From a virus (taxonomy: Duplodnaviria > Caudoviricetes), in IMG/VR virus record IMGVR_UViG_3300025018_000091: DNA of 64,000 nt; one strand, 5' to 3'. Within the stretch, counting starts at the first letter, position 1. Every line of letters starts with the position of its first letter. A program made the position numbers and the translations under genes. Positions 11,692-55,054 of the stretch are shown in pieces. A model generated the notes under the pieces. That model did no database searches. It saw only the letters and a list, made by a program, of their open reading frames with translations, and was not told the DNA's origin.

Positions 11692-12204
11692 TTATCGAAG
11701 TGGAAACAAAGATGGTTGAGTGCTAAACAAATTCTTCCAAGAATCTAATGCAGTAGCAACTGGAGCAGGCGCAGGCAATGTAGAAGGAACTGTCACAGCA
11801 ACTGGCTGTGAAACAATTGAGCCACTATCAGTTACACTAACACTATTATCACCAACGGTGACTGCAACTGGCGCTGCGGTCATAGGACGTGCAGCGGTCT
11901 TTGCCCTTTGCTGAACATCATATTTAGAATCCAGGTCCCAAGAGTCAGCCAAAGGATGATACAATAGGGCTTGGGCAGTCGAACCATCAGCAAGATTCAC
12001 TGTGATAGGTGAACGACCATAACCTTGAGGTTCAATAGAATTTATCCATGCAGCACGAACAACATCACGAACTTCACGATGGCGTGCATGTGGCATCTTT
12101 TCCTTTACCTTATTGCTGACGTCAAGCGCAGTAAACAATTCATCTGCACTAACAAAATCAGCAACAACCGTATCAACCAAACTCTCCAAATTAGAATTAC
12201 TCAT
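11692..12204 (-). CDS. hypothetical protein
   Basis: ORF with GGAG RBS; Ala/Pro/Val-rich C-terminal linker. Confidence 0.6.
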   Translation of the reverse strand: MSNSNLESLVDTVVADFVSADELFTALDVSNKVKEKMPHARHREVRDVVRAAWINSIEPQGYGRSPITVNLADGSTAQALLYHPLADSWDLDSKYDVQQRAKTAARPMTAAPVAVTVGDNSVSVTDSGSIVSQPVAVTVPSTLPAPAPVATALDSWKNLFSTQPSLFPLR

Positions 12205-12990: not shown

Positions 12991-13178
12991 TGTATAAATG
13001 CTAAATTATCTGCAAAAATAGCATTTGGTTCATTAAAACCATCATAATTTACTCTATAAGATCGATAACCTTGTTTAGGGCTACTTGGAGTAGCTGGTTC
13101 CAAGTATCGTCTTGTAAGATTTCCATTTTTATCAAAAGACACTTCATAATTCTGAAAAACTCTAGGATTCTTATTCAT
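12942..13178 (-). CDS. hypothetical protein
   Basis: Overlaps NADAR stop. Confidence 0.45.
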   Translation of the reverse strand: MNKNPRVFQNYEVSFDKNGNLTRRYLEPATPSSPKQGYRSYRVNYDGFNEPNAIFADNLAFIQCYSTKKTQRILFLNL

Positions 13179-13602
13179 GTCGCAACTCCGCTCTAACTTC
13201 CATTAATACCTTGCCAAGCATGTTTTTTCCAGAACCATCAGCACCACATCCCCAATAGTAATCAACTGGAGAGTCTTCAATTAAAATTTCATCATTTGTG
13301 GCAAGTAATTGTTCCCTAAGATTATGATGTTGTACAAACTTAGCAAGAACAGCGTCTTTCATTACCTGATACTTATCAGAATCAAAATGATCACGAAAGG
13401 TTACTGTTTGACCAAGATCTCTTGCTATACGTGGAGTTTTTGCAGAACGAATCATTTCTTGTTCGTCTGTATAAACTGTTTTCATGGCTTGATAATAATG
13501 TTCTACAGTATTCCACCATTTTCCATTAAGAAAAATTTTTGATCTATAGAAATTACCCATATATCCATGAGGGTCTTGTGTTTTATAAAATTTAATTGTC
13601 AT
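13171..13602 (-). CDS. NADAR (YbiA-like) family protein
   Basis: GNFY, TVEHYYQAMK, KFVQH..LREQLLAT, IEDSPVDYYWGCG, NMLGKVLMEVR. Confidence 0.92.
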   Translation of the reverse strand: MTIKFYKTQDPHGYMGNFYRSKIFLNGKWWNTVEHYYQAMKTVYTDEQEMIRSAKTPRIARDLGQTVTFRDHFDSDKYQVMKDAVLAKFVQHHNLREQLLATNDEILIEDSPVDYYWGCGADGSGKNMLGKVLMEVRAELRHE

Positions 13603-13643: not shown

Positions 13644-14663
13644 ATGAAGAATACAATTATCAATATCTATGTTCATGGTACTCGTCACCAAATTGGTTAT
13701 AAAATAGGTGCTATTCATCAGAAATATATCAAATATAAGGCTGATAAAGCTTATGATGAGATGAATTCTGAACAGCGTAGGTGGGTACTTGCTTCTTGGC
13801 AAATTACCAAAAAATATTGTTCTGATTTTGTTGCCGAGTTAATTGGTATGAGTGAAGGGGCTAAAACTACTCCAATAAACGTTTTTACTAAATTTTGCGA
13901 AGAGATAGATGATTTTAGTAATGGCTGCACTGATATTATCGCAATGCCAAATACTACCAAACATCATGAGACACTTATCGGTCATAATAATGACGAGGTT
14001 CCTGATGATGCCAAACCTATGATTATTAGAAGCACAACTCCAGACGGAATAACTGCCGTAGGAATTTCCTACAATGGTTTTGGTTATGGTGTAGGGTTCA
14101 ATAATCAAGGTATTAGTATAACTGGAAATCATTTATCACAAAATGATATTAAAGAAGGTATTCCAAGATTAGTTTTACTTCAAGAGATGATGAGAGCCAA
14201 AACATTTGAAGATGTTGTAAAAATTGCATCTCATCCGTCTAGAGCTTCCAGTTATAATAATGTTATTGCGACTCCTAAACAGTTAGTATCATTAGAAGGA
14301 TCTAGTAATTATTTAACTCCAATTATTGTTAAAAGCGGTATTTTTGCTCATGCAAATCATTATCTATCTAATAAGCTTAAAGAGAAAGTAGAAAACAAAC
14401 CAAAAAAGGATATGGCAGGATCTATTGCCAGAATTAATAGAGCAGCCCAATTATTGCAAGAATCAAAAGGTCAACATACTATTGATACGTTTAAATCTAT
14501 ATTATCAGACCATGGCTCTAAGGTTAGAGATATTTGTAATCATACTGGAAAGCCTAATGATTCAGAAACAATTTTCTCTATTATAGTTAGACTGGAAGCA
14601 AGACAGCTATATTATACAAATGGAAGACCCTGTTCAACTCCTTGGATACGATTTAAGTTCTAA
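13644..14663 (+). CDS. peptidase C45 (acyl-CoA:6-APA acyltransferase-like Ntn hydrolase)
   Basis: NGCTDI nucleophile site, GHNND, GFNNQGISITGN, HANHYL, SIARINRA. Confidence 0.8.
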   Translation: MKNTIINIYVHGTRHQIGYKIGAIHQKYIKYKADKAYDEMNSEQRRWVLASWQITKKYCSDFVAELIGMSEGAKTTPINVFTKFCEEIDDFSNGCTDIIAMPNTTKHHETLIGHNNDEVPDDAKPMIIRSTTPDGITAVGISYNGFGYGVGFNNQGISITGNHLSQNDIKEGIPRLVLLQEMMRAKTFEDVVKIASHPSRASSYNNVIATPKQLVSLEGSSNYLTPIIVKSGIFAHANHYLSNKLKEKVENKPKKDMAGSIARINRAAQLLQESKGQHTIDTFKSILSDHGSKVRDICNHTGKPNDSETIFSIIVRLEARQLYYTNGRPCSTPWIRFKF

Positions 14664-14940
14664 CTCTACGACCTCTTAAAACATCAATTGGATTCACAGG
14701 TTCAGAATCCAATACTTCCAAAAACGCATCTGATAGTCCAGTCAATGCAGTATCAACATCAGATGCAACACATTTGCAAACTACCTTTTTACCAGATTTA
14801 AATTCACTTCCGTATCTAACAACGGAAGAATAAATACTTCCATCTTTTAGAGTGGAAACTAGCACACCAGGACAAGTTGCATCCTTACGAAATGCGTAAG
14901 AAACGGCTTTAGTTAAATCATTTAGTAGTGTATTACTCAT
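14653..14940 (-). CDS. hypothetical protein
   Basis: Coupled to the Macro gene. Confidence 0.55.
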   Translation of the reverse strand: MSNTLLNDLTKAVSYAFRKDATCPGVLVSTLKDGSIYSSVVRYGSEFKSGKKVVCKCVASDVDTALTGLSDAFLEVLDSEPVNPIDVLRGRRVRT

Positions 14941-15422
14941 TATTCTTCTCCTTCTAACCTATAAATTATTACCTTTGCGCCTTGTGTTTCGTCAATATAA
15001 CGGGCAAAATTAGTTATGGTGCCAAGATAATTTTCCCAATTTCCTCCAGCAGCACCACACCCAATTCTCCATGGGAATGCTACGCTATCTAAATCAGGAA
15101 TTCGAGCAACAGCCATTAAGGATTTATGAAAATACTTTTCTCTTGTCTTTGTTCCATCTAATGTTGATAGTGGATACTTTGGAGTACCTGGATAATATTG
15201 ACCAAGTAATGCAATTACATATCGCTGGTCATCTCCATTTCCTCTAACAATAATAGTTCCTGGCACATCTGGATCTTTTTTTGCAGTATACACATCGGCA
15301 TATGGATAGTGACGGAAAACTGTTTGCGCTAAGTGTGCAGAGCGATTTGTTACACAATTACACTGATGACACAAATACTTTTCTTTAGAATCAAATATAC
15401 TCCCAATAATAATATCTAACAT
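14940..15422 (-). CDS. Macro domain protein (ADP-ribose hydrolase)
   Basis: GSIF...CHQCNCVT, AFPWRIGCGAAGGNW. Confidence 0.88.
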   Translation of the reverse strand: MLDIIIGSIFDSKEKYLCHQCNCVTNRSAHLAQTVFRHYPYADVYTAKKDPDVPGTIIVRGNGDDQRYVIALLGQYYPGTPKYPLSTLDGTKTREKYFHKSLMAVARIPDLDSVAFPWRIGCGAAGGNWENYLGTITNFARYIDETQGAKVIIYRLEGEE

Positions 15423-15452: not shown

Positions 15453-15986
15453 CTATTCATTATATCTTGTTTTAAGATAAGATATCATTAATTCATTAAG
15501 CTCTTGCTCCATTAAATCTAACTTAGCAGAATTTAACCACAATGGAACAAATTGTAAATTTTTTATATCAGAATAATCTTTAGAAGGATCTATTTTATCT
15601 ACAGATGCCCAAAAGGCTTTTTTACTATGTTTGTTAACTATTGAAAAATCCATGTATGGAAAAACTTTTAAACCATGTTTAGCTAATTCTACAAGATCAT
15701 TAATGACTAACTCTTTTCTGCCCGCAAATCTATTATTTTTATCAGAACGTTGTTGCCACCTTAATATCCATTGAATTATACAAAAATCAATATCTTCACT
15801 AGACTTCTTTTCTATTATTTTTTTATGAGATATGTAGTTTTTTTTGTTTCTTCTTCTTTTTTCTTCTGTTGATAAATTATTCCACCATTCTTTATTTTTT
15901 TGGGCATGACAAGATTTACATATAGATCTGTTCTTTTGAAGATTATCTTTAGTTCCACAATGTGTACATTTTCTCATATTAATCAT
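15453..15986 (-). CDS. free-standing HNH-like endonuclease
   Basis: N-terminal CxxC...CxxC, SVDKIDPSKDYS..NLQFVPLWLNSAK; likely start MRKC at 15977. Confidence 0.7.
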   Translation of the reverse strand: MINMRKCTHCGTKDNLQKNRSICKSCHAQKNKEWWNNLSTEEKRRRNKKNYISHKKIIEKKSSEDIDFCIIQWILRWQQRSDKNNRFAGRKELVINDLVELAKHGLKVFPYMDFSIVNKHSKKAFWASVDKIDPSKDYSDIKNLQFVPLWLNSAKLDLMEQELNELMISYLKTRYNE

Positions 15987-15991
15987 AGTGA

Positions 15992-16516
15992 TTAATATGT
16001 ACTTATATTGATAGGATCCTGAAATTTTCTAAACCATGATGGTGGCGCAACTCCTTTATTCCATCTAGCAAAAGAAGCTTTATCTAAACAATAAGCCAAT
16101 CTATAACTAGCTACAACGTCATCTAATATATATTGAGGTTTCACACCAATATGAAATTTTGTTAATGGTCCCGATTTTGGCTTTGCGCCAAGACCTATTG
16201 CAAACTCAATGGCTTTCCTAGATTTTATGTCTTTTTTATATCTTCTGGTATATTCTTCACATAATGCTAATCCATAGATGGCTACCCATTCAAAATTTGA
16301 TAATGTTTCTCTTGCCCATTTTGTTATCGGATGATTTGCATGAGAAATTTTGTATTTATCAAAAGGTTCATAATCTCTTTTATAAGAATCTCCACCTAAC
16401 AAAATTGAATTTGTATTAAGAATTTGTGCAACTTCAGTTGGCATTTTTACTACATGAGAATCACAATGATATTTTGCTGACTGAATAGGATCTTCATCTA
16501 AAACAAATATATTCAT
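15992..16516 (-). CDS. pyrimidine-dimer DNA glycosylase/endonuclease V-like phage protein
   Basis: MNIFVLD..P..SA..HCD.HVVKM.TE.AQIL, HANHPITKWAR, LCEEYTRRY. Confidence 0.75.
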   Translation of the reverse strand: MNIFVLDEDPIQSAKYHCDSHVVKMPTEVAQILNTNSILLGGDSYKRDYEPFDKYKISHANHPITKWARETLSNFEWVAIYGLALCEEYTRRYKKDIKSRKAIEFAIGLGAKPKSGPLTKFHIGVKPQYILDDVVASYRLAYCLDKASFARWNKGVAPPSWFRKFQDPINISTY

Positions 16517-17016
16517 TAATCTTTTACTTTCATCCTACGATCTTTGGGCATTTGTTTATTATATTCAGAAATCCACATTAAAAGCAATAAATGTTGATGA
16601 TCCTCTACATCATCTGCGCCCATTGTATTCCAATTATATTTTTCAACAACTGTTAGTTTAATTGGATCTAATGACCACACTTCACGAGTCTTGTGACAAT
16701 CTGGCACAATTCCTTTATAATGTTTAGGAATATTTTTAATTACTCTTCTTGGAATGAAGATATTAGGTATTTCTTTAACAGCATATATAGTTATGTCTGA
16801 TAAGCTATATAAATTATAATTAGACATATTATCATCATAATGACTTGCAATTAAGCATCCAAATATAGTTGGGGCTAAACATACTCTTGGAGTAATTGTA
16901 TCTTCAACTACGTGACCTTGTTCGCCGATATAACCATTTACTGGAACTCTTGGTACAAATAGTTTTTGTTGACCAACAGTATATGGATCGTTACGAAATG
17001 AAACGTGATAATACAT
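16516..17016 (-). CDS. putative ADP-ribosyltransferase-fold protein
   Basis: YYHVS near the N-terminus, FVPRVP, PRVCLAPTI.GC, VPD...TREVW; coupled to PARP. Confidence 0.45.
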   Translation of the reverse strand: MYYHVSFRNDPYTVGQQKLFVPRVPVNGYIGEQGHVVEDTITPRVCLAPTIFGCLIASHYDDNMSNYNLYSLSDITIYAVKEIPNIFIPRRVIKNIPKHYKGIVPDCHKTREVWSLDPIKLTVVEKYNWNTMGADDVEDHQHLLLLMWISEYNKQMPKDRRMKVKD

Positions 17017-17018
17017 TC

Positions 17019-18509
17019 TTACTTAACCTGTGTTTCAAACTCAATGATATAACGAATACAATGTTGTTGACCAACGCCAGCAGGAGTATAAGTAATGATT
17101 TCATCATTAATGACACCAGACTTACCACCAACTGCAAAAACGCTATGAGCAGGCGCGATGCTCTTCTTGGAGTAGAAGTGCGCACCATTTGCATATTTAT
17201 AATTACCATAAGCAACATCTGCTAGGAATAAGTAGGCAGTCTTATTAGTTCCTTGTGCCCAATAAGATCCCTTAACATCACAATAGTTAATAGACTTAGT
17301 AGATTGAGTTGCCCAATAAATACCATCACCATACATAGAACCAGCATGAACAACGCCAGATGGACGAATCAAAAGTCCCTTGGTTGTAATACCAATCATG
17401 TTTGCTCTACGGGTTCCATGCCAACCTGGTAGGATATTTGCTTTAGCGTATAGGTCTCGTAGAGACTTGGGAACATCGGGGCGTTCTTTAATTAAAGAGG
17501 CGTATGCTTGTGAAGGATCCGACTTCCCACAAGTCTTAGCAATCTGTTCTGCTGCTGCTAACATATTTTTCTCTTCATTATGACGAGAAACTTTGAAAAT
17601 CTTATGCGTCTTTAGTTTACCAAGAAAATGATGATTATGTGCCTTGGTCTTATGTAGCATTGCATCAATCCACTTCCAAGTAGGATTTGAAGGATCAACG
17701 AACTCAATATCAGAATGAAGCGTATCATATTGAGAATCAACATTGCTCTTCTTAGAAATAACCTTTTCAACATCCTTCGCGTTAGAGAATACATCTAAAA
17801 TATCAAAAGCCTTATCAATTTTAAGGTCATCATCAAGTCGCAATACATCAGCATTAATTCGAGTATATCCAAAATTGTGAGGAATATTCGAATAATATAG
17901 ATTAGTAAGCTTATTTAGTTCGGTAACATCAATTTTAGAAGCGTGGATAATCTTTCTGGCTTCTTCAAGGATATCACGTCCTTTGATAATAGAATCGGCA
18001 GACAATTGACCCAATGGACACTTCTTTGTGTCAAGATTCATCTCAACGAACTGAGCGGTAACTCCGAACCAAGTTCTAATCAAATCACCAACTTGGGGAT
18101 GAAGTTTACTGGTTGTTGATTCTTCAGAGACTTTTACACCAATCTTCTTAAGATCCTCAACAGAAACTTGTGAAGTTTCAATTTTGGATTTAGAAACATC
18201 AGATCCAACAGCGGCTTGTACAAGTTTGACTTCTACGTAGCCCTTCTTTAATTTGGACTTAATAATCTTGGCAGCTTCTTGTTCTGCGTCAACTTGACCT
18301 GAACAAATTCGATATTCTTTTGCAGCAGTACCTCCAACGCGCCCATACTGAGTGTATAGGTAAAACTTACCATCTTTAGCTTTTTGAATCTCCAGATTGT
18401 AATACTTGTTATTGTTGTTGATAATGTCTGTAAAATTAAGGGTATATCTCTTTGTAACATCATCAACATCCACAGAAATTGCCCCTGCTTTCAAAACCGG
18501 CTTACCCAT
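17019..18509 (-). CDS. PARP-family ADP-ribosyltransferase (WGR + regulatory + catalytic domains)
   Basis: YYNLEI...YGRVG; LGQLS...LYYSNIPH; WHGTR..N..GI...GL; MYGDGIYWA...KSINYC; NDEIITY (H-Y-E triad). Confidence 0.92.
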   Translation of the reverse strand: MGKPVLKAGAISVDVDDVTKRYTLNFTDIINNNNKYYNLEIQKAKDGKFYLYTQYGRVGGTAAKEYRICSGQVDAEQEAAKIIKSKLKKGYVEVKLVQAAVGSDVSKSKIETSQVSVEDLKKIGVKVSEESTTSKLHPQVGDLIRTWFGVTAQFVEMNLDTKKCPLGQLSADSIIKGRDILEEARKIIHASKIDVTELNKLTNLYYSNIPHNFGYTRINADVLRLDDDLKIDKAFDILDVFSNAKDVEKVISKKSNVDSQYDTLHSDIEFVDPSNPTWKWIDAMLHKTKAHNHHFLGKLKTHKIFKVSRHNEEKNMLAAAEQIAKTCGKSDPSQAYASLIKERPDVPKSLRDLYAKANILPGWHGTRRANMIGITTKGLLIRPSGVVHAGSMYGDGIYWATQSTKSINYCDVKGSYWAQGTNKTAYLFLADVAYGNYKYANGAHFYSKKSIAPAHSVFAVGGKSGVINDEIITYTPAGVGQQHCIRYIIEFETQVK

Positions 18510-18654
18510 TTTATTGTCCTCTTATCTATTCTGACGACTATATTTAGTCTGTTTGATTTTATCGAATGACACTTCTTGCGAAGTTATTGTTAAATACTTA
18601 TAATAAAACTATTTCTCGACAAACTAATTAATTCACATCTACTATGAGGTAACT

Positions 18655-18828
18655 ATGAAAAAGCTTGTAAAACTATTAAAAGATAATCGTGGAGCTAACT
18701 TAGTAGAATATATAATATTAGTTGGAGTAATTGCACTTGTAGCAATTGCTGGATTCAAAATCTTTGGCGAAAAGGTTGATAGTAAAATTCAAGAACAATC
18801 TAATAAAGTTGAGCAGATTGGAAACTAA
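18655..18828 (+). CDS. flp: Flp/Tad (type IVc) pilin, 57 aa, absent from ORF track
   Basis: MKKLVKLLKDNRG-ANLVEYIILVGVIALVAIAGFKIFGEKVDSKIQEQSNKVEQIGN; G cleavage site, E+5 followed by Y; GAGGT RBS. Confidence 0.88.
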   Translation: MKKLVKLLKDNRGANLVEYIILVGVIALVAIAGFKIFGEKVDSKIQEQSNKVEQIGN

Positions 18829-18831: not shown

Positions 18832-19137
18832 TCATTCGCCCGGCTGAGAATATAACTTCATCAGCAGTGCGTCTAATATAAGGCTGAAAATTGCGCCCGC
18901 AAGTGCGTACAAAATAAAAAAATTCCATTGCGGTTTTTCCGCTGACAGCAGATAAACGATCCACCCACAGTGGAATCCTAAACAAAAATAACAATCTAAC
19001 AGTTTGTAGAAGAATGTCCCTACATACTTATTTCTTATTAGTTTATTTCTGATCCATGCCATTATTCCCCATGGACCATCAGATTCCTTTATTAGAAAAG
19101 CTAATCCATATATTGCTAACAAATTAAATAGAATCAT
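18832..19137 (-). CDS. DUF1360-like membrane protein
   Basis: Hydrophobic helices, LLDCYFCLGFHCG. Confidence 0.55.
   Translation of the reverse strand: MILFNLLAIYGLAFLIKESDGPWGIMAWIRNKLIRNKYVGTFFYKLLDCYFCLGFHCGWIVYLLSAEKPQWNFFILYALAGAIFSLILDALLMKLYSQPGE
18875..18902 (-). promoter_or_regulatory. sigma70-like promoter inside the DUF1360-like gene, reading antisense across the pilin toward PARP
   Basis: TTGCGG-N16-TATATT. Confidence 0.45.
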
Positions 19138-23939: not shown

Positions 23940-25838
23940 TTATTGAACCTTATCTAAGAACTCATCCTCAGAAATAAGCACTGTCCCCATTTTTCTTGCT
24001 GCAACTGCCTTAGAACTTGTACTATTAGGATCTGCAATAACAAGATAGGTTAATCCTTTACCAACAGATGATTTGATTTCGGCACCAGCATCTGCCGCCA
24101 TCTTCTCAAGAACAGGACGCTTATTCTTCATAGCACCAGTAAAACAAACGGATGAGCCGCTCATCTTACCAATAACCTTCGCTTTCAACTTAACTCCATT
24201 ATCAAGTAAGTCAAGGATTACTTTTTGATTTTGAACCAAGCCATTAGCTAGAGACGTGGCTTTGCTCGGACCAACACCAGGAACCATCTCAAACTCAGTA
24301 GCTCCAAGCTGCCCAAATTTTTCCAGTGTATCACAGCCAGCGTTCATAATCTGACGAATAGTTGTCGATCCAATCATAGGAATGCTAAGCCCTCCGATGA
24401 AAACGTCCAAACTAACTTCGCTATTCTTCCAAAGACTTTCAAAACAATTTTTCGCAGATTTCTTTCCCATTCTGTCAATAGAAGCAAGATCATCAACAGA
24501 TAAAGTATATAAATCAGCAACAGTTGAAATTTTGCCAGCTTCAACTAATTTTTCAATTAAAGTATCTCCCCACTCTAAAATGTTGAGATCACTAACCCAA
24601 TTCTTAATTCTGCCAACAACTTGTGCCGGACATTTCTCTGTATTGGTGCAGTTAAGATTCTCTCCAACCATAACCAATGTTCCACCACAAGACGGACAAC
24701 TTACTGGAGGTTCGGCAACCTTACCTGTTCCCTTAACTAACTCTTCAATTCTCGGAATAACATCGTTAGCTCTTGCAACAAGTACAGTCGCCCCAATATC
24801 TAGCCCTAAATCTTCAATATAAGACATATTATAGATACTTGCTCGTGTAACTGTAGCTCCAACAAGTGAAACTGGATCAACTACTGCCACCGGGGTTAGA
24901 CGACCACTATTACCAACTTGCCAGATAATATCTCGAATAACAGACTCACGAGTCTCATTATCAAACTTAAATGCAATAGCGCCCAACGGTCGCATGTCCT
25001 TGTCACCCAAAGACATTTGTTTAGCCATGTCATTGATATGAATTACTAATCCATCAATGTCATAGTCAAGTTTGTCACGATCAACATCTTGATAATTTCT
25101 CCAGTGCAAGTTGACCTCAGAGGCATTATTAAACACCCAGTAGTCAGGAATGATGAGTCCAAGAGACTTAAGCCACTCGAACTGTTCAACCTCTGTATTG
25201 AAGTCAACATCACCTAAAGCCTGGTAAAACATGATAGAAAGATGTTCGGAACCAACGCCATCCAATCTTTTAGAGACTCCCGATGCGGCATTACGAGGAT
25301 TGGCTTTATCAGAAAAATGTTTCTTATGCTTAGACTTCAGCATAATAATCTCGCCACGAATCGAACCATTAAAGGCTTTTGATAGCTGAGACTTAACTCC
25401 ATCCATCTTTCTGACATTGACTGTGATATCTTCGCCAATATCACCATCTCCGCGAGTAATGGCTTGAATCAATACACCATCTTCATAGATCAACTCAATG
25501 GATATCCCGTCCAATTTTTGTGTAACAAACAGAACTTCTGATAAAGCATTATCATCTGTCCACTTAGAAAACTCTGTTGGAGTATTAATCTTGTTCAAAG
25601 ATCCCATCGGAATCTGATGCTTAGCTTTTGTCCAAGCTGAATTTACTGGAGCACCAACCGCTGTTAAAGCTTTATTTGTGGGATCCAATAGGCGCAACTC
25701 ATCACACCAAGCATCATAAACTTTATCTGATACTTTAACTTGACCGTTGTAATAATCAAGGCGCGCCTGATTGATCTGAACTACTAAATCATCAATACGA
25801 TTCATTACCTTCATCTTTCTGTAATAGTTATACACCAC
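23940..25838 (-). CDS. ligA: NAD-dependent DNA ligase
   Basis: KLDG motif I, TRGDG, IRGE, NPRNAASG, DIDGLV, AFKF, Zn finger, HhH, BRCT. Confidence 0.96.
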   Translation of the reverse strand: MVYNYYRKMKVMNRIDDLVVQINQARLDYYNGQVKVSDKVYDAWCDELRLLDPTNKALTAVGAPVNSAWTKAKHQIPMGSLNKINTPTEFSKWTDDNALSEVLFVTQKLDGISIELIYEDGVLIQAITRGDGDIGEDITVNVRKMDGVKSQLSKAFNGSIRGEIIMLKSKHKKHFSDKANPRNAASGVSKRLDGVGSEHLSIMFYQALGDVDFNTEVEQFEWLKSLGLIIPDYWVFNNASEVNLHWRNYQDVDRDKLDYDIDGLVIHINDMAKQMSLGDKDMRPLGAIAFKFDNETRESVIRDIIWQVGNSGRLTPVAVVDPVSLVGATVTRASIYNMSYIEDLGLDIGATVLVARANDVIPRIEELVKGTGKVAEPPVSCPSCGGTLVMVGENLNCTNTEKCPAQVVGRIKNWVSDLNILEWGDTLIEKLVEAGKISTVADLYTLSVDDLASIDRMGKKSAKNCFESLWKNSEVSLDVFIGGLSIPMIGSTTIRQIMNAGCDTLEKFGQLGATEFEMVPGVGPSKATSLANGLVQNQKVILDLLDNGVKLKAKVIGKMSGSSVCFTGAMKNKRPVLEKMAADAGAEIKSSVGKGLTYLVIADPNSTSSKAVAARKMGTVLISEDEFLDKVQ

Positions 25839-31509: not shown

Positions 31510-32787
31510 TTAGTAATCAGTTTTCCAATATGGGAAACGAAGAACTTTAAATAACTCTAGGGCATTTGTTTCGCTATCATATTGAGTTCTTGTGACATTT
31601 CCATAATCAATGACTTCTTGATTTTGAAAACTATATTTAATATCAACATTACAAGCAAAAATTATAGAGTTACCATTACCGCCATATAAAAATACACGAT
31701 CATATATAATTGCAGCTTGTGATTGGAACACTTCTCCAAGAATTTGTTGTGATAATTGTGTCCAAACTATTGGTAAACTCAAATCACATTTAAATATCTT
31801 TGTATAATATGTTTCATTTGGTGGTGTTGTTTCTGTATAATGATAATATCCATCAACTAATATATAAGATCCGACACGTTCCTTATCTATTCCAAAAAGA
31901 TATCCACTTTCGCCAATAGTTATAAACTGAGCAAATGCCATTGGATGTGGGAGCGTGTCCTCAGTTGTCCAATCACTACTCTCATTAATTAAATCGCTTA
32001 ATTCTATATAATATGTATTAGATGTAGGTAAATGACCATAAGTATTGGATATTATTCCCCCAAATAGATATATTCTTTCATTTATATAACCTAAAGATGA
32101 CCCATATAATGGTGAAGGAAGTTTTCTACTATGTGTGTTCCAGATTAATGGTTGATCAACAGTAGCATAATATACATAATCTACTGGCTCATTAATAGTA
32201 TGACCACCAAATAGATAAATATAACCATCGGATCCTGTTAATACTAACTGTGAATGGTATAGCTCTTGGGGCAAAATAGATCCATGATTGGTCCAATCTA
32301 ACGGATCTGTTAGTGGTGCAGAGTATACAGTGTCTGTTGCAACTCCATTATTTCCACCAAATAGATAAACTCTGTCATATATAATGGCAACTTGTGCTCC
32401 ATACAATGGAGTTGGAAGAGTTGCGTCAGTATCTATCCACTCTGTTGGACGACCTGTCGATGCTCTATAGATTTTATCTGATATTTTTCCTCCAAAAAGA
32501 TAAATATATCCATCTATAATAGCTAAATGAGAATCTTTAAGAGTACTTGGAAGCTGAGTATAGGTAGTGCGCCAATCAGTTGGTTTAGGAAAATTAAAAT
32601 CTACTGGTCCTGTACCTGCTGGAATTGCATATGCCACAACATCTACAAATAGATTTGTTCCTCCCCTAGATCCAGTATAATAATATCCATCATAGTCAGG
32701 ATAACCGTCTACCACCCATGTTCTATATTCAACTGGAGACGAATCAACATCTCTCCCTAACATTTTAAAGGATATGCTTGTCATCAC
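31510..32787 (-). CDS. Kelch-repeat beta-propeller protein
   Basis: Repeated (I/V)YLFGG...W...LPxPL units. Confidence 0.8.
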   Translation of the reverse strand: MMTSISFKMLGRDVDSSPVEYRTWVVDGYPDYDGYYYTGSRGGTNLFVDVVAYAIPAGTGPVDFNFPKPTDWRTTYTQLPSTLKDSHLAIIDGYIYLFGGKISDKIYRASTGRPTEWIDTDATLPTPLYGAQVAIIYDRVYLFGGNNGVATDTVYSAPLTDPLDWTNHGSILPQELYHSQLVLTGSDGYIYLFGGHTINEPVDYVYYATVDQPLIWNTHSRKLPSPLYGSSLGYINERIYLFGGIISNTYGHLPTSNTYYIELSDLINESSDWTTEDTLPHPMAFAQFITIGESGYLFGIDKERVGSYILVDGYYHYTETTPPNETYYTKIFKCDLSLPIVWTQLSQQILGEVFQSQAAIIYDRVFLYGGNGNSIIFACNVDIKYSFQNQEVIDYGNVTRTQYDSETNALELFKVLRFPYWKTDY

Positions 32788-32812: not shown

Positions 32813-35371
32813 TTAATACTTGTCTTTTCTAGTTTGTGTAGCAATATCCCATAATTGATCTGTACTCATTCCAGCGTATTGTTTATTCTGCTTATAGACA
32901 AGAAATAACTCAGATTTAGAACGCGTTATGGCAACATACCAAAGATTTGCTTCCTCTCCCTCAACTCCAGGACCATAACGATATGTACTTACTAATACAA
33001 ATACTCTGTCTCGTTCCATTCCCTTCGCTTTATGGGTAGTTGAAAAGATAACTTTATTATTATCATCACCATCATTGAACAATTTTTCAATTGTTTCTTT
33101 CAAATCTTTGATTGTTAAAGTACCTTCACACAAATTTAATAAACATTCTGCCTTATCAACACAAATATCTGTACTCTTTTTCTCAGAAAGTAACCTTTCA
33201 ATCTCTTGTTCTCTCCAAGAATTTACATAAGCAATGAATTTATTTATTGTTTTTGCTTTAGACTTCTTAATAAAATACAAAAGATTAGCTCTAACATCTT
33301 TTCCTTGGATGTTGGCAGGGATTCCCGCTCTTAAAAATGCCATGCAGTGTTTAACTAATGGAGCGTTTGTTCTAGATAGAACAAAATCGCCAGCTTTAGC
33401 TAGTTTTTGAAGTTCATGCACTTGAATATCATGAATGATTCCTTCAGGTGCAGTCTCTGCAGCTTCAATATCTGGTACAACTTGCTGAGCCATTGTAACA
33501 ATTTTCTTTGGACACCTATATGTAATAGATAATGGAAGTGTTTTTGCCTTCAACTTATTGATAAAATTAGGTATAGCCTCGCTATCAGCACCCCTAAATT
33601 GATAGATAGAATTATGACTTAAAATGCCATTTCCAATAAAATTAGCAGAATCTTCTACTTCTAAATCATAAAATACACCCTTATTATTTTTTATATCAAT
33701 TATTGTTTCTTCTGATAATTTACCATCATTATTGCAATATACTTTCATACCGACATGTAATCCTGATGCAGTTATTAAATAAGGATTCCTCCCCAAAATA
33801 GATAACCTCTCATTTATTTCAGCTCCAGTTAATGTTCGTAACATTGTTGCAAATATTATTGCTTCATTATAGTTAGCAAAATATTTTCTGATTCTAGAAT
33901 TTTTGCCTTTAGAAAAATGTATTTTATTAGCACGTAATAATTCATCAATTTTATTATCTTTCCATTCTAATGTAACTTGAGTATTCTTTTTTGAATGTGC
34001 ATTAACTCTAATTGTATGTTTATTGGTATTAGAGTTTGATGATACAATCCAATGCGGATATTGTTTACTTAGTTTTTTATCTTCTAATAAACGAAAACCA
34101 TTTCTCCCAAAATAATCAAACACCTTATTTATTCTATCCTGATTTAATCCTCTATTAGTACCATTAAATACACAAGTGGGTATTCCATATGTTAAAGAAT
34201 ATAATTCCTCAAAAAACAAAGCCTCTTCATTTGTTTCAACAATATCAAGAACCCATAATTTTTCTGCATTTTCCGACCTAGCACGTAGACCAAAAGGATA
34301 TTTAGAATCTTTCCATGTATTAGTTTTACCAACTCTATACCCCAAATCACGCCTATACATTAAGTATACAATGTATTGATTATTGAGTTCTGGATAAGAT
34401 GCCCATATTTTATGGTTTGGCGACATTAATAACTTTTTACCAGATTGTGTAGTTATCTCACGCCCAAAACTCCATAATGATAATTGCTTATTAACAATTT
34501 TTTTGTAATCTAATTTACCATTGTTAAAACACAATATACTATCACCAACATTACAATCTTTTATTGAAACAGATTTTCCTAAAATATCTATTTTAGTATT
34601 TTCATCTACACATTGGGCAGGATCGCCTACAGCAATGATTCTTCCGCCAGGTTTACATGCAGACATAACCATTACCATTTGTGCAGTATTAAGATCCTGC
34701 GCTTCATCTACAAAGACAGTATCAAATTTTCCAACATTTAAATGATATACGAATGGAAACCATATCATATCATCAAAATCAATGACTTGTTTAGTTTCTT
34801 TACATCTACCAAGAGCCTTAATAACATGTTCAATAAACTTTTCACGAGTTAATTCGAAGATTTCAATGCCAAATTTATCAATTAAATCTCCAATTTTGGA
34901 CGGAGTATCAAATAAAAATCCTTTACATAGTGAAACACACTTGCAAATACTCATATTAAGTTCCCATAAATCATGATCATCACCAATAATTGATGATACA
35001 ATAGTAGAACATTTCTTATTTTCTAGTACAACTTCTCCAAAACTTTGCTTAATAGCTCTAAAGCCAAGCGAATGAAGAGTCATCACGTCTATGTAGGACG
35101 GTGCTCGTTGTTTTAATTCATCGGCAATAGCTTTATTGAAGGCAACCATAAGCGTTTTCTTGCCTCTTGGTAGATATTTGAAACCTTCAACAATAGTAGA
35201 AGTCTTACCAGAGCCAGCTCTAGCGATAACTACAGTGTGATCTGTTCCGTATTTGATATCTCTAAAAATATCCTTTTGTAATTCAGACCAATTACGCTTA
35301 GGATTTGCCTTAACAATGTGAGAGTTGTCTGGTTTTTTAGGTGGAAACTTATTAGTTTTCTTCGGCGGCAT
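32813..35371 (-). CDS. UvrD/Rep-like SF1 helicase containing an intein
   Basis: ARAGSGKT, AFNK, DEAQD, VGDPAQ|SIYQFRGA, TYRCP, STTHKAKGME, YVAITR. Confidence 0.92.
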   Translation of the reverse strand: MPPKKTNKFPPKKPDNSHIVKANPKRNWSELQKDIFRDIKYGTDHTVVIARAGSGKTSTIVEGFKYLPRGKKTLMVAFNKAIADELKQRAPSYIDVMTLHSLGFRAIKQSFGEVVLENKKCSTIVSSIIGDDHDLWELNMSICKCVSLCKGFLFDTPSKIGDLIDKFGIEIFELTREKFIEHVIKALGRCKETKQVIDFDDMIWFPFVYHLNVGKFDTVFVDEAQDLNTAQMVMVMSACKPGGRIIAVGDPAQCVDENTKIDILGKSVSIKDCNVGDSILCFNNGKLDYKKIVNKQLSLWSFGREITTQSGKKLLMSPNHKIWASYPELNNQYIVYLMYRRDLGYRVGKTNTWKDSKYPFGLRARSENAEKLWVLDIVETNEEALFFEELYSLTYGIPTCVFNGTNRGLNQDRINKVFDYFGRNGFRLLEDKKLSKQYPHWIVSSNSNTNKHTIRVNAHSKKNTQVTLEWKDNKIDELLRANKIHFSKGKNSRIRKYFANYNEAIIFATMLRTLTGAEINERLSILGRNPYLITASGLHVGMKVYCNNDGKLSEETIIDIKNNKGVFYDLEVEDSANFIGNGILSHNSIYQFRGADSEAIPNFINKLKAKTLPLSITYRCPKKIVTMAQQVVPDIEAAETAPEGIIHDIQVHELQKLAKAGDFVLSRTNAPLVKHCMAFLRAGIPANIQGKDVRANLLYFIKKSKAKTINKFIAYVNSWREQEIERLLSEKKSTDICVDKAECLLNLCEGTLTIKDLKETIEKLFNDGDDNNKVIFSTTHKAKGMERDRVFVLVSTYRYGPGVEGEEANLWYVAITRSKSELFLVYKQNKQYAGMSTDQLWDIATQTRKDKY
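33611..34612 (-). mobile_element. intein (334 aa) in helicase motif III
   Basis: Starts CVDENT, block B LLMSPNHKIW, ends VFYDLEVEDSANFIGNGILSHN followed by Ser+1. Confidence 0.92.
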
Positions 35372-35459: not shown

Positions 35460-36377
35460 TTATATTCTCCTTGGAAAGAAAAGATATGATGTTCTATTAT
35501 AAAGCTGGCTATCTAACTCTATTAATCTATCAAAATCTTCAACAGAATAAAAATCTTTATCAATTCCTTTAAGACCTAACTCTGCACCAAACAATGCACC
35601 AACAATGGCGGCTGTTGTATCTGTATCTCCACCAGCTCTAATAGCGGTTCTAACTGCATCTGTATAATTATCAAACTTTAAATAACAATAAATGGCAGCG
35701 GGAACAGTTTCTCTTACATTAGCTCTAGTTCCCAAAATCTTTAAAGCTTGGTCTGGTTTAATATGTTCAGAATCAATTAATGATCCTAGGCTATAAATAG
35801 TGTTCTTTACCTTACAATCGGGTAAATGAATACAGATTTTCTCTAACAAATTATCTGTATCATGATTTACAGCATATGCGGCAGCTAATGCAATGGTAAT
35901 TGCCCCCGCTTCAGCATCTTCTGATACGTGGGTAATAGCACTATCCATCTTAGCAATACTAACTAATGACTTAATATCATTACGGAAATATACGCCAAAA
36001 GGGGCTGCTCGCATAGCGGTACCATTACCATATGAGCCTGCAATACCAGATTCACTCCAATGTTTACCAGAATCAAGATTTTGCATTGCCATTAGAGTGG
36101 TTTTACCATAACCCCTGGCTAAACCAGACTTAATCCATGCTAAATAGCGCTGGGCAAGATCATCCGGGTTAAATCCTGAGTTAATAATTAGAGACTCAGC
36201 AACTACAATACTCATCTGAGTGTCGTCTGAATACTGCCCTGGCTTCAATTTATGATGTTCACTACCTAAATAAGTTGTGCCATCCCAATCCATAAGCTCT
36301 TTATTGTTGACTAATTTTGTCTCAAATGGTACGCCAAGCGCATCCCCAATAGCAGTTCCCAATAATACATTACTCAT
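35460..36377 (-). CDS. ADP-ribosylglycohydrolase (DraG/ARH family)
   Basis: AIGDALG, YSDDTQM, GNGTAMRAAP, GGDTDTTAAIVG. Confidence 0.95.
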   Translation of the reverse strand: MSNVLLGTAIGDALGVPFETKLVNNKELMDWDGTTYLGSEHHKLKPGQYSDDTQMSIVVAESLIINSGFNPDDLAQRYLAWIKSGLARGYGKTTLMAMQNLDSGKHWSESGIAGSYGNGTAMRAAPFGVYFRNDIKSLVSIAKMDSAITHVSEDAEAGAITIALAAAYAVNHDTDNLLEKICIHLPDCKVKNTIYSLGSLIDSEHIKPDQALKILGTRANVRETVPAAIYCYLKFDNYTDAVRTAIRAGGDTDTTAAIVGALFGAELGLKGIDKDFYSVEDFDRLIELDSQLYNRTSYLFFPRRI

Positions 36378-41224: not shown

Positions 41225-42135
41225 AATAGCACCATATCTTTCCCAAAATTAGTTATCAAGTTATTATCTTGATTAAAAATAAACGCCTTAACATAATCTG
41301 CACTACCAACCAAAACCCGCCTTAGATAAAATGGAACCTCACCTAATTCATTGTAATATGTAAAGTTTTCACACTTACATGACTCTCTATCTTTAGCGAA
41401 TTTCTCGAACAAAAATCCATCTCGTACATATAGCTTAGATGTTATGTCTTCATAATCTATGAATAGATTATCACAAGATTGTGTTTTATTCATAAGCGAT
41501 ACAAATCCAACCTGATAAGCTCCGACTTGAATTGCGAAATCTAAATATCCTCTAAGCTTTTCTGGCGAATCAATAAATCCCTTCATTAGATTACATGATA
41601 AGCTAAAAATCTTAGGTCCCATTTTGAATTCTTTTGCAAGATACGTGATGCTTGGAGTTTTAATTCCAAAAATAACGTTATTTTCTATATCATTATAAGA
41701 ATGTCTAGATATATGAATATCATTAAGAACATAAAAATGTGGTATTGTTCTTAATGATTGTAAATTCATACCATTAGTATTAATTGATACAGGGTATGTG
41801 TCTGCCCCACAAACGTCAGTAATCGTATGCAAAATAGATTCTACTGCATTTAAGTCAGATAATGGTTCACCACCAGTAAGACTGATTCTATTTATTACTT
41901 GTTTTTGATGTAATTCAATAAGACTTATTCTAAACTTATTGATATCAATTCTATCTTTTGAAGTAAATCCAGGACAAAAAGAACAGCGTGCTGGACAATA
42001 TCCAGAAGAATAGATATATAGATTTACTTTGTTATTAGCACAAGAACTGCCGCCCGTTGTAGAACAGACATAATCTCTTATGCTAATATGTTTGCCAAAG
42101 ATCTCCATGATATATTTATAATTCGGCTCTGCCAC
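41221..42135 (-). CDS. radical SAM protein
   Basis: CPARCSFC, LTGGEP, NTNG. Confidence 0.88.
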   Translation of the reverse strand: MAEPNYKYIMEIFGKHISIRDYVCSTTGGSSCANNKVNLYIYSSGYCPARCSFCPGFTSKDRIDINKFRISLIELHQKQVINRISLTGGEPLSDLNAVESILHTITDVCGADTYPVSINTNGMNLQSLRTIPHFYVLNDIHISRHSYNDIENNVIFGIKTPSITYLAKEFKMGPKIFSLSCNLMKGFIDSPEKLRGYLDFAIQVGAYQVGFVSLMNKTQSCDNLFIDYEDITSKLYVRDGFLFEKFAKDRESCKCENFTYYNELGEVPFYLRRVLVGSADYVKAFIFNQDNNLITNFGKDMVLL

Positions 42136-43500
42136 GAATCTTTTCTAATGTATCATCTACAAGAATTTCTCCATTCTCATATACAATCCTCATTACAGAC
42201 TGCGGATGCGAATCTGCAACAATAAGTTTTACTGTCTTATATTCACCATATGGAGTTTTAATCAAGTCCAAACGTCCAGCTTTTGAACGCTTGCCATCAT
42301 CTGTAATAGGATCTTTAAAGACATCAATGGATTCTTCGCCACGATTGATATGACAACATTTCATAGCGAATTTTTGCGTGTCACGATTAATCTGTTGTAG
42401 TAATGCTCCACCCATACCAAACGCGATATTGGTAGCACTAAACCCATTAGCTAATAACGCATCAAGAATCTGCTTAATGGAATCTTCATCAATGCCATCT
42501 CCTTGAAGGATTCTAACATTATTGAGAACCATATAATTCTTAGTGTTAGTTGTAGTTCCAAACTTCTCAGCAAGTAACATAGCCGTTTTCAACACTATCT
42601 CAACAGGATCCCCAGAATCGGGGCGGATTACGACCGTCGCACCGGATTTTATAAGTTCTTCACGCAGTTCCTCGCCCCATAGGTGGGAGCAAGCGTTCCA
42701 CAAATTATAAGAATCCGACACCACTGCAAGAAGCGCGCCAGGTTTCGCAAATTGAGTTAGCATATTACGATATGCTTCTATTTCATTTTCCTTACCCCAT
42801 GATGTAATCGAACTATGTTCTGCGGCTGGGATACTAAAACCTGCCATATCAATGTTATAAAATCGATTTGCGCAAACTACACCCATAACTGTGTCACTTC
42901 CCATGAAGTTAACAAGGTGAGCAGCACCACCAATCATTGCAGATTCTTTGCTTGACACTCCGCGAGAGCCAAAATCATGCAATTTGAAGTTAATTTCTGC
43001 CTTTGGGTCATCAGAGGACTTAACTAAAGCATTAAAAATAATGTTTTTAATTGTATAGCTTCTGGTACAAACTGTAGTTGGATACCAGACATATCTCATT
43101 AGGGATGTTTCAAGCCACGAAACAATCCAAAAAACCTTTGGGTCTGTAGATTCTACAGTGACTAAAACGTTGTGATTGGGCACTTTAGTACCCTCTGGAA
43201 CCGCTCGGATACGAACGGGAAGTTTTCCACCAAGATCCTTGGCTATATACATCCAGCCATCATAGTTGAAAGGCTCTCCATGAGCAGCAAAAAAAACTTT
43301 TGCTTCTTCGACTTCTTCAACCGTAACTCTATGAGACAGATATTCCTTTAGATAATATTGCAATCCGAAAAATACAGTCTCAGGATACTGTCCACCACGA
43401 GATTCGATATAACTAAAAAACTCGTCGTTCCTGCGGGGTATTGCAACCAATGCGAAGCCTTATAAGAATCAGTATCTAAAATAAAATTCATTTTTGACAT
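42116..43500 (-). CDS. nadV: nicotinamide phosphoribosyltransferase (apparent one-base indel at A6 43415-43420)
   Basis: True N-terminus MSKMNFILDTDSYKASHWLQYP from ATG 43500 lies in another frame; body YIESRGG, LHDFGSRG, AAEHS, VSDSY, RPDSGD, QGDG, GMGG. Confidence 0.93.
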
Positions 43501-44505: not shown

Positions 44506-45522
44506 TTAAAAACGGTTGCAATAATATGCAATAATATGCCAATGATCTTCAAAGAACTCAGCTTCTCTTGTATAGAATTCGCTCAAAGGCATCCACCAAG
44601 CTTTATCTGCATCATCATTACCCTTTACTTGCGGCAATGGTCCAGATTTCAGATTGATAAGAAATGCATGAGTAATTGTTCTGCCTCTTAGAGAACGATC
44701 TGGGTGATCGAAAACTCTTTGGTCAATGATAGCGGAATCTAAATCTTCCTTAGAAACTTTAATACCAGTTTCTTCTTTTAGCTCTCTAATTGCTCCAACC
44801 TTAATCTTTTCATTTTGATTAAGGAACCCGCCAGGTAATGCAATAAGACCTTTGCCTAGATTACCTCTGCGTCTTACAACCAGAACATGCCCACTTTTGA
44901 TAACTACAGAATCAACTGTAACAAAAGTAGGAGGGAAAGGAGCGCCTTCCCAAGCAACAGAATATTGCTTAATGAAGTTATACTCATCTTTCAACTTAGA
45001 AAAAGTTGGAGTATTCTTGAAACTCTCCAGATAATCACCAACTTCTTCAGTTACATATTTCTTATACGCAATATCATGAGTGAAATACAGTCTTCGCAAA
45101 TCTGTTGCATGAGGATATTTATCGATATTCTTCATTGAAATCAATTTCCATTGAGGAAACAATTTCAGATAAAAAGAACTTCGATCATGATCATGACCAA
45201 TGATAGCGATATTGTCAGACCCGTTAGTCTTTTCGTATACCTTTTGCTGCAAATCAGTGAGCCAGAGATTATCATTATATAGATAGTCTCTCATAAAAAT
45301 AGTAGTAACACGCTCATTATCTTCTTTAGATAGAGAGTTACTAATCATTTGGGCGCGCTGATCTGCTGTCCAAGGATTTTTAATGTCTGGAGCCTTGTTG
45401 TGACTCCCAATTACAACAATAACTTTCTCTGCCTGATTAAGAGCTTCTGTTAGCAACTCTTTATGAGCAAGATGAAATGGTTGAAATCTGCCGATAAAAA
45501 TACAATATTCATATAATTTCAT
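44506..45522 (-). CDS. nadM: bifunctional NMN adenylyltransferase / ADP-ribose pyrophosphatase (NadM-Nudix)
   Basis: IGRFQPFHLAH, NPWT..QR, ALPGGF...AIRELKEETG Nudix box, RGRTITHAF, GNDDA. Confidence 0.95.
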   Translation of the reverse strand: MKLYEYCIFIGRFQPFHLAHKELLTEALNQAEKVIVVIGSHNKAPDIKNPWTADQRAQMISNSLSKEDNERVTTIFMRDYLYNDNLWLTDLQQKVYEKTNGSDNIAIIGHDHDRSSFYLKLFPQWKLISMKNIDKYPHATDLRRLYFTHDIAYKKYVTEEVGDYLESFKNTPTFSKLKDEYNFIKQYSVAWEGAPFPPTFVTVDSVVIKSGHVLVVRRRGNLGKGLIALPGGFLNQNEKIKVGAIRELKEETGIKVSKEDLDSAIIDQRVFDHPDRSLRGRTITHAFLINLKSGPLPQVKGNDDADKAWWMPLSEFYTREAEFFEDHWHIIAYYCNRF

Positions 45523-53822: not shown

Positions 53823-53847
53823 TTAAAGGCGTCAAAGAATGAAAAGA

Positions 53848-53953
<106 letters not shown>

Positions 53954-53978
53954 GATGTATTCCTTTCGGCATACGCCA

Positions 53979-54053
53979 TGGAGCGGGTGAAGGGATTTGA
54001 ACCCTCAACTTCAAACTTGGAAGGATTGTACTCTACCATTGAGTTACACCCGC
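53979..54053 (-). tRNA. tRNA-Gly(TCC)
   Basis: Loop CT-TCC-AA, CCA. Confidence 0.92.
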
Positions 54054-54150
54054 ACATTACATATAACATTTTATGCCCCAGTTAACCATTTAATATTTTC
54101 AAATCCAACATATTTTTGTATTACTCCATATTGATAGTTAAAAGTTCATA

Positions 54151-54585: not shown

Positions 54586-55054
54586 TATAGCTTCTCTATC
54601 CTCAATAAATAAGGATCTACATAAAAATAACCACGTTTATAATCTGCATAACCTTCTGTTCTATTAAAAGAAGATCGTTTTCCATCACTTCTCTTTGGTG
54701 CATTAGGAAGATTATGCACTGTCTTAATCTGTAAATAAATCTTTATTTCTGGCGAATCTACTGATTGTAACCAATAGTAATAATACTTAAATCCTCACCG
54801 GGAAGATTATTAAAATCTACATAATTACCAAATTTAGATTTAACTTTACTTCTAATATTATTCAATTTAAACTCTATATAAGGACCATGATCCCCATACA
54901 CAATTCGTTCATATCCTTTAAATAATAGAGTCCCAGAAGAAGGCGAATAGAACTCAGTTGAGAAATCTCCCTCTTCAGATAGGTCTAGTTTAGATTCCAA
55001 CTCTTCTTTATCTTGCAATCTATTCTCATAAATTGCGGTTGTTTGAAAAACCAT
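54585..55054 (-). pseudogene. hypothetical protein with apparent frameshift at 54789-54791
   Basis: ERIVYGDHGPYIEF joins KYYYYWLQ...GYADYKRGYFYVDP if one T is added. Confidence 0.55.

Follow-up and report, generated by a model that had tools for sequence, protein, structure and literature searches.

The 64,000-nucleotide stretch of DNA analyzed here (the window; IMG/VR record IMGVR_UViG_3300025018_000091), from a virus of the Caudoviricetes, carries on its minus strand a gene for a poly(ADP-ribose) polymerase (PARP) of 496 amino acids, in which a WGR domain, a helical regulatory domain and an ADP-ribosyltransferase (ART) catalytic domain follow one another. A preliminary description, made from the sequence alone, had read the open reading frame (ORF) at 17019-18509 as a phage-encoded PARP with the domain order of PARP2, PARP3 and the bacterial PARPs. 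We found this to be correct on both counts: the ORF has exactly these coordinates, and Pfam places the three domains within it in the order WGR, regulatory, catalytic. The gene begins with an ATG codon, and its features are as follows:

17019..18509 (stop codon included), minus strand: PARP gene, 496 amino acids (P0001), from the ORF list and translation, Pfam and PDB matches
18228..18446, minus strand: WGR domain, residues 22-94, with the motif Y55-G56-R57 (Pfam PF05406, E 8e-16)
17718..18110, minus strand: helical regulatory (autoinhibitory) domain, residues 134-264 (Pfam PF02877, PARP_reg)
17022..17669, minus strand: ADP-ribosyltransferase catalytic domain, residues 281-496 (Pfam PF00644, E 5e-18)
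17418-17420, 17316-17318 and 17100-17102, minus strand: codons of the key residues H364, Y398 and E470, respectively
18517..18523, minus strand: Shine-Dalgarno sequence AAGAGGA, 7 nt 5' of the PARP ATG, from sequence

The match of the regulatory domain to its Pfam model covered 131 of the 135 profile positions (E 1e-19, 71 bits), and Pfam found no extra domains in the 496 residues. The closest solved structures by sequence were those of human PARP1 (2e-28) and PARP2 (7e-28), as judged by phmmer against PDB sequences. An AlphaFold model of the protein, built with 93 relatives, had a mean predicted local distance difference test score (pLDDT) of 87.9 and a predicted template-modeling score (pTM) of 0.78; only the linker between the WGR and helical domains (residues 112-128) and one loop were poorly defined, and the regulatory domain was modeled as a helical bundle. 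With Foldseek, the whole model superposed on the WGR-to-catalytic (WGR-CAT) part of PARP1 at a DNA double-strand break (4dqy/4opx), with a template-modeling (TM) score of 0.70 by query and 0.75 by target, as well as on full-length PARP2 at a bridged break (6x0l), while catalytic fragments of PARP1 matched the model with TM scores of up to 0.80 by target.

We found more than 500 homologous clusters at 90% identity, all with the same three domains and many of them on contigs of 430-490 kb. Compared with the closest relative, the ratio of nonsynonymous to synonymous substitution rates (dN/dS, Nei-Gojobori) was 0.065 overall, and 0.061, 0.042 and 0.055 in the WGR, regulatory and catalytic domains, respectively. 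Since the ratio is low in each of them, all three domains are maintained, and conservation and dN/dS together rule out a pseudogene or a chance ORF. Thus, the window encodes a complete WGR/helical regulatory/catalytic PARP. The preliminary description had also spoken of the bacterial PARPs as rare; the resemblance to them stands, but the word needs qualifying, since the family is common across a whole clade of phages of 430-490 kb, and PARPs of phages have been catalogued. The number of promoter and terminator sites around the gene was no higher than in shuffled sequence.

We then compared the catalytic domain with those of the 121 closest family members and of named reference PARPs. The triad H364/Y398/E470 aligned with the triad of all reference PARPs, in keeping with the earlier claim that the H-Y-E triad is intact; the motif NDEIITY cited in support of that claim is present, and its Glu is E470, which in the alignment coincides with the catalytic Glu of all the PARPs included. 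H364, Y398, K405, S406 and Y409 were invariant in all 121 relatives and E470 was found in 120, while among 93 diverse relatives the three triad residues were invariant or at least 90% conserved. By motif, these six residues correspond to His862, Tyr896, Lys903, Ser904, Tyr907 and Glu988 of PARP1, and equivalents of Gly863 and Met890 are present as well; the donor-site stretch aligned with that of PARP1 without a gap. Within this ungapped stretch, the Met890 position is occupied by M392, a further key residue of the domain, and 110 of the 121 relatives have Met there. In PARP1, Met890 is an acceptor-site residue, and the mono-acting PARP3 has Arg in its place (PMC6486540). At this position, the phage enzyme is like the polymer makers.

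One departure from the eukaryotic enzymes lies in the motif that names the WGR domain, in which the Trp is replaced by Tyr in all 121 relatives, although G56 and R57 are conserved. The same Tyr occurs in the PARP of Herpetosiphon aurantiacus (HaPARP), which makes poly(ADP-ribose) (PAR) in vitro and requires DNA to do so; another bacterial enzyme, CdPARP of Clostridioides difficile CD160, also makes PAR (PMC8120803). The substitution is probably tolerated, given that the DNA-dependent HaPARP shares it.

A phylogeny with bacterial PARPs, which the preliminary description had proposed, grouped the window PARP with the eukaryotic clade-1 PARPs and the Herpetosiphon PARP, apart from most other phage PARPs. 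The tree (IQ-TREE, LG+C20+F+G4; 67 rows and 444 columns, with a subset of the bacterial loci and with the long-branch row L064 left out) consisted of two supergroups, each supported at 95/97. The supergroup of the window PARP comprised a huge-phage group (98/98), within which the window's own clade was supported at 100/100, the eukaryotic PARP1/2 group (100/100), a Herpetosiphon/Chloroflexota group (100/100) and a group of Bacillota and Armatimonadota (89/81). The other supergroup held the PARPs of Bacteroidota and Proteobacteria along with those of the phages Klebsiella 05F01, Xanthomonas XacN1, Cellulophaga phi17:2 and the uncultured LR756500; among the other phage PARPs tested, only that of the 595-kb phage LR756511 fell on the window's side. 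Because it takes five changes to accommodate the five other phage rows on the tree, phage PARPs are polyphyletic. The tree does not settle the branching order among the four groups of the window supergroup, and for this reason we make no claim on the direction of gene transfer.

The regulatory domain also distinguished the window PARP, whose PARP_reg score of 71 bits was the best of the phage and bacterial PARPs tested. The PARP of phage 05F01 scored 27 bits, and Pfam gave no PARP_reg match in those of XacN1, Cellulophaga, LR756500, LR756511 or Herpetosiphon. The phage PARPs of the other supergroup, among them those of Cellulophaga phi4:1/phi17:2, XacN1 and Klebsiella 05F01/FBKp34 and the 'PART' family (Iyer et al. 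2022), resemble the window PARP in having a WGR and a PARP catalytic domain with an H-Y-E-type triad, but they mostly lack a Pfam-detectable regulatory domain, and no PF10021 poly(ADP-ribose) glycohydrolase (PARG) was found in their genomes, unlike the window genome. LR756511, on the window's side, has a PARG-like frame.

The closest parallel among characterized enzymes that we weighed in detail was with HaPARP and other compact bacterial PARPs, which share with the window PARP a short N-terminus, the WGR domain, a helical region, the catalytic domain and H-Y-E. HaPARP further resembles the window PARP in its Y-G-R motif, in being without the eukaryotic acceptor-loop insert, in its membership of the same 95/97 supergroup, in having a bacterial-type PARG in the same genome, and in being followed by a gene with the small domain that is also found in a 170-amino-acid protein of the window (hhalign 77%; see below). 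The two enzymes are, however, only ~28% identical; the regulatory domain of the window PARP is by far the more eukaryote-like, the position of PARP1 Tyr986 is Asn in the window PARP and Tyr in HaPARP, and the window PARP is phage-borne with erasers dispersed over ~70 kb rather than gathered in an operon. Human PARP2, PARP3 and the WGR-HD-ART portion (HD, helical domain) of PARP1 share the domain order and fold of the window PARP (TM scores of 0.62-0.70 to DNA-bound PARP1/PARP2) at ~21% identity, but the window PARP has no zinc fingers, BRCT domain or basic N-terminal tail, has Tyr for the WGR Trp and Asn for Tyr986, and has an acceptor loop shorter by ~25-35 residues. The preliminary description had called PAR synthesis plausible, which was a fair statement and is strengthened by both the acceptor-site Met and the tree: polymer synthesis by the window PARP seems plausible because Met is found at the Met890 site and because the enzyme groups with the eukaryotic clade-1 PARPs and the PAR-making HaPARP.

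Since the removal of ADP-ribose bears on what such an enzyme might do, we also examined the other genes of the window, which has a low G+C content (~0.29-0.39), nearly all of its genes on one strand and 16 tRNA genes. One window protein is also on record on a contig of 444,127 bp; among public sequencing runs, no RNA run matched and the only full DNA match was an aquifer metagenome that may be the source sample, and megablast with 20 kb of the window gave no match to GenBank phages. The products that PARP1-3 form on proteins and DNA ends are known to be reversed by PARG, TARG1 and ARH3 (PMC8385414). The window encodes the following:

14940..15422, minus strand: macrodomain protein of 160 amino acids, TARG1/DarG/Poa1p class (AlphaFold pLDDT 91.8; Foldseek)
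13171..13602, minus strand: NADAR ADP-ribose N-glycosidase (PF08719, 133 bits; TIGR02464, 136 bits)
35460..36377, minus strand: ARH/DraG-type ADP-ribosylglycohydrolase (PF03747, 241 bits)
42116..43450, minus strand: NAMPT (NadV), NAD+ salvage (Pfam NAPRTase and NAMPT_N)
44506..45522, minus strand: NMNAT-Nudix fusion (NadM type), NAD+ salvage (Pfam CTP_transf_like and NUDIX)
23940..25838, minus strand: NAD-dependent DNA ligase (LigA) with BRCT, 5.4 kb upstream of PARP (Pfam DNA_ligase_aden, OB, HHH and BRCT)
32813-35371, minus strand: UvrD-type helicase split by an intein (Pfam Intein_splicing, residues 304-587)
18832..19137, minus strand: DUF1360-like membrane protein of 101 amino acids, directly upstream of PARP (PF07098 at cut-off)
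11692..12204, minus strand: 170-amino-acid protein (P0276) without known family, a candidate conserved PARP partner

We asked how constant these neighbors are in 27 related IMG/VR loci, which encode PARPs at 52-90% identity to that of the window. The DUF1360-like gene was upstream of PARP in all 27, the macrodomain gene was downstream of it in 24, and NADAR was present in 19. The macrodomain protein has no Pfam match, and its class was assigned from its model, which matched TARG1 (4j5q, E 1e-8), DarG (5m3i, TM 0.72/0.76) and Poa1p in Foldseek. The ~35 neighbors of PARP that were scanned are genes for repair, NAD, tRNA and ADP-ribose functions; no structural genes or MuF fusion were seen among them.

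We found no PARG in the 64-kb window when we searched it by tblastn with the PARG of a relative, as the preliminary description had reported. That description went on to leave the removal of chains to the ARH or Macro proteins, and this part did not survive the search beyond the window that it had itself proposed (for PARG, DUF2263), since the same genome encodes a PARG, ~66 kb from PARP. The gene lies on a record (L150) that was reached by three exact-protein look-ups and is 99.98% identical to positions 53842-64000 of the window over 10,159 bp; successive loci on the route from the window to this record overlap at 100%.

L150:3905-4756, outside the window: PARG, 283 amino acids (PF10021, 146 bits; motif GGGFLSGAVAQEE)

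The PARG signature GGG-X6-8-QEE is intact in this protein. Thus, a bacterial-type PARG is present in the window genome, or in a variant that shows 2 differences from it over 10 kb. In window coordinates the gene lies at ~84.9-85.7 kb, ~1.2 kb downstream of a Ro60 gene (TROVE and vWA_Ro60) with two small ORFs between them; we note that it stands directly before a GIY-YIG nuclease gene (L150:1139-5139, ~84.5-88.5 kb in window coordinates). All four near-complete relatives (CheckV 97-100%) likewise encode a PF10021 protein (151-163 bits) with the motif GGGFL[AS]GA.AQEE, which in NCBIfam is TIGR02452 (247 bits). Among five other PARP-bearing phage genomes, only that of LR756511 had a PF10021 frame. 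PARP and PARG therefore co-occur in the huge-phage clade, without strict linkage.

In the reading that we favor, and that we consider somewhat probable, this PARP is an active ADP-ribosyltransferase of the DNA-dependent type, of the kind of PARP1-3 and HaPARP, which would serve phage-run signaling of DNA damage or DNA ends, most likely by making polymers. The DNA dependence, polymer formation, targets and biological role set out here are what we infer for this enzyme. A groundwater phage of 444 kb would produce the PARP in the cell that it infects, and the WGR domain of the enzyme would bind a DNA nick or end. Binding would detach the regulatory helices from the catalytic domain, and the enzyme would then use NAD+, supplied by the phage NAMPT and NMNAT, to attach ADP-ribose to itself, to proteins in its vicinity and/or to phosphorylated DNA ends, most likely as short or long chains of PAR. 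For removal, the phage PARG would take the chains, and the TARG1-class macrodomain and ARH would take the last unit. Such a circuit may serve the replication and repair of a very large phage genome.

Several observations weigh against this reading. With respect to polymer synthesis, the Tyr986 position of PARP1 is Asn468 in 120 of the 121 relatives, whereas it is Tyr in HaPARP and the eukaryotes and His in one Bacillota PARP, and a Y986H mutation of PARP1 alters branching (PMC6486540). Moreover, the long eukaryotic acceptor-loop insert is missing, as it is in the Herpetosiphon PARP, and H-Y-E is no guarantee of polymer synthesis, being found in PARP3 and PARP4 too. The erasers also admit other roles. 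Bacterial-type PARGs also strip ADP-ribose from 2'-OH groups of RNA and from RNA or DNA ends that are phosphorylated, and can serve as immunity enzymes (PMC11833690); the position of this PARG near Ro60 points to a function in the repair or quality control of RNA more than to a tie with PARP. Furthermore, we examined five other huge-phage contigs that bear PARG, and found a clear PARP in two and a weak PARP match in one; of the two with none, one is rated complete and the other ~75% complete. Given the RNA and DNA-end substrates of bacterial PARGs, and given a complete huge phage that bears PARG without PARP, we do not count PARG as strong evidence for polymer synthesis. In the macrodomain protein, an invariant Gln (Q75) stands where our alignment reading puts the catalytic Lys of TARG1 and DarG; Bacteroides BT1257 (2fg1) has the same Gln, and Gln-bearing macrodomains may form a subgroup with a different mechanism. 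Rather than being partners of PARP, the macrodomain and NADAR could be counter-defense against DarT. Finally, we found no paper in the literature that measures the activity of any phage PARP.

These points bear on three other explanations. The enzyme might be a mono-ADP-ribosyltransferase like human PARP3, activated by DNA breaks and placing single units on proteins or 5'-phosphorylated DNA ends, with the macrodomain and ARH as its erasers in place of PARG; we consider this possible, though unlikely. PARP3 has the same WGR-HD-ART layout with a short N-terminus (preprint 10.64898/2026.10.17.759577) and adds single units in spite of its H-Y-E, and both the Asn at the Tyr986 position and the absence of the acceptor-loop insert fit such an activity. 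So does the distribution of the erasers, in that the macrodomain is near PARP in 24 of the 27 loci while PARG is ~66 kb off, near Ro60; moreover, TARG1 and ARH3 remove what PARP3 adds to DNA ends (PMC8385414). On the other hand, the residue at the Met890 site is Met and not the Arg of PARP3, HaPARP makes PAR with the same compact layout, and PARP and PARG are found together in all four near-complete genomes of the clade. A more doubtful proposal is that DNA is the main substrate, such that the enzyme caps phosphorylated ends or nicks (phage termini, replication intermediates or cut host DNA) with ADP-ribose or PAR, shielding them from nucleases or marking them for the NAD-dependent ligase of the phage. 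PARP1, PARP2 and PARP3 do modify phosphorylated DNA ends in vitro, sometimes more efficiently than themselves, which keeps phosphatase from the ends, but even in eukaryotes this modification is without an established role in vivo (PMC8385414). The neighborhood is rich in erasers of ADP-ribose on nucleic acids (NADAR and the DarG/TARG1-class macrodomain) and holds DNA enzymes (LigA, UvrD, and endonuclease VII-like and Pyr_excise-like genes), but NADAR acts on guanine adducts, which are not known as PARP products (PMC11833690), and the sequence does not separate protein targets from DNA targets.

We also considered that the enzyme might be a weapon rather than a signal, consuming NAD+ or modifying host proteins to shut down the host or exclude other phages, as the Alt and Mod proteins of T4 do. 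This we hold to be very unlikely. Most characterized phage ARTs do act on host proteins (PMC9503650), and this phage is able to refill its own NAD+; nonetheless, the full autoinhibitory helical domain and the WGR domain argue for tight, DNA-dependent control and not for constitutive activity, and the four classes of eraser in the phage fit a reversible mark. Furthermore, unlike enzymes of the T4 Alt type or MuF fusions, the window PARP has no MuF fusion and no head or packaging context among the neighbors scanned.

The 170-amino-acid protein merits separate consideration, since it recurs beside PARP genes well outside the clade of the window. It has an N-terminal domain of ~85 amino acids (LFTALDVSN...RHREVR), a low-complexity linker and the C-terminal sequence TQPSLFP. 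In the huge phages, its family is present in 22 of the 27 loci, 1.2-4.7 kb downstream of PARP and on the same strand. We built a hidden Markov model (HMM) from the first 95 residues of the phage proteins and ran it on PARP loci, and found the domain immediately after PARP in 17 loci of Armatimonadota and 3 of Kofleriaceae, just upstream of PARP in a metagenome-assembled genome (MAG) of the Planctomycetota, ~1.5 kb downstream of PARP in phage LR756511 and, as a weak match, in two Chloroflexota loci; none was found in three Bacillota loci. The product of the gene directly after PARP in a Kofleriaceae MAG is 41% identical to that of the 170-amino-acid ORF over 105 residues (E 2e-14). The link to the gene after the Herpetosiphon PARP was seen by profile comparison only (hhalign probability 77%, E 2e-5, 68 columns), as BLASTP gave no match between the two proteins. 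The lineages with this domain all have PARPs of the same supergroup as the window PARP, with the one exception of L074, a Chthonomonadales MAG with a weak domain match (23 bits) whose PARP is in the other supergroup. No Pfam model covers the family, profile searches of the PDB gave nothing meaningful, and the ESM Atlas gave only sub-threshold leads to winged-helix proteins and DUF7225.

In 100 of 120 phage members the protein ends in Q[PA][ST]LF, typically TQPSLFP[RK][KR], which to our eye resembles the motif QL[SD]LF that binds the bacterial sliding clamp (beta-clamp). We tentatively propose, as an idea that we think has a small chance of being right, that the protein is a dedicated accessory factor of the PARPs of huge phages, Armatimonadota, Kofleriaceae and probably Chloroflexota, in which the N-terminal domain would bind DNA or PARP and the C-terminal motif would tether it to replication forks. 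If this is true, then the PARPs of prokaryotes and phages would possess a cofactor for targeting or specificity, with a role comparable to that of HPF1 or XRCC1 for PARP1/2.

Several other genes near PARP look less constant. A gene for a protein of 166 amino acids (16516-17016, minus strand) begins 2 nt past the PARP stop codon and has no Pfam match; the ESM Atlas gave leads to the ART fold, namely the Arr rifampin ART by features (0.95) and RES and Scabin/enterotoxin-like proteins by structure (TM 0.43-0.54). We ruled this gene out as a conserved partner of PARP, since it is present in only one of the 27 related loci; it appears to be a recent passenger and is possibly a second ADP-ribosyltransferase. 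Between PARP and the macrodomain gene (15453-16516, minus strand) lie the Pyr_excise (T4 endonuclease V-like) and endonuclease VII-like genes, which look like optional passengers whose presence varies among relatives. In the gap upstream of PARP, a 57-amino-acid ORF on the plus strand (18655-18828) has a ribosome-binding site (GAGG) of its own. It is kept at 91% and 77% identity in the two closest relatives, and resembles the Flp/Fap pilins (PF04964, 24 bits, under the cut-off of 32 bits). The sole sizeable plus-strand gene of the stretch (13644-14663) is like those for acyl-CoA:6-aminopenicillanic acid (6-APA) acyltransferase and Ntn-hydrolases (PF03417, 64 bits) and is absent from all 27 related loci. 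Farther from PARP, we noted a Kelch-repeat beta-propeller protein of 425 amino acids (31510-32787, minus strand) and a 145-amino-acid protein (63362-63799, minus strand) that matches the DOT1 histone-methyltransferase family (PF08123), an unusual find in a phage.

The window PARP joins a set of phage enzymes that published surveys have catalogued. Perina et al. (2014) listed PARP genes in Aeromonas phage Aeh1 and Cellulophaga phi4:1 (PMC4245714); Iyer et al. (2022) named the PARP family as one of the commonest groups of viral ARTs and stated that some may make polymers (PMC9503650); and a survey of 2024 reported jumbo phages that carry PARP1-like genes and make NAD+ as well (PMC11662467). What we add to these are a PARG in the same genome, the Met at the acceptor site, the split of phage PARPs into unrelated lineages, and the partner domain that goes with the PARP lineage. 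Found across four bacterial phyla and two phage lineages, this partner domain is a lead to PARP targets or regulation.

PARP signaling is usually regarded as a eukaryotic response to DNA damage. Here, a clade of phages of 430-490 kb keeps, under strong selection, a highly eukaryote-like three-domain PARP together with PARG, a TARG1-class macrodomain, ARH, NADAR, NAD+ salvage and an NAD-dependent ligase, a nearly self-contained kit for the writing, erasure and supply of ADP-ribose. The phage is uncultured, so tests would for now be in vitro or heterologous only, and the kit could be reconstituted from a few small soluble proteins. As such, it could address what PARP does outside the eukaryotes.

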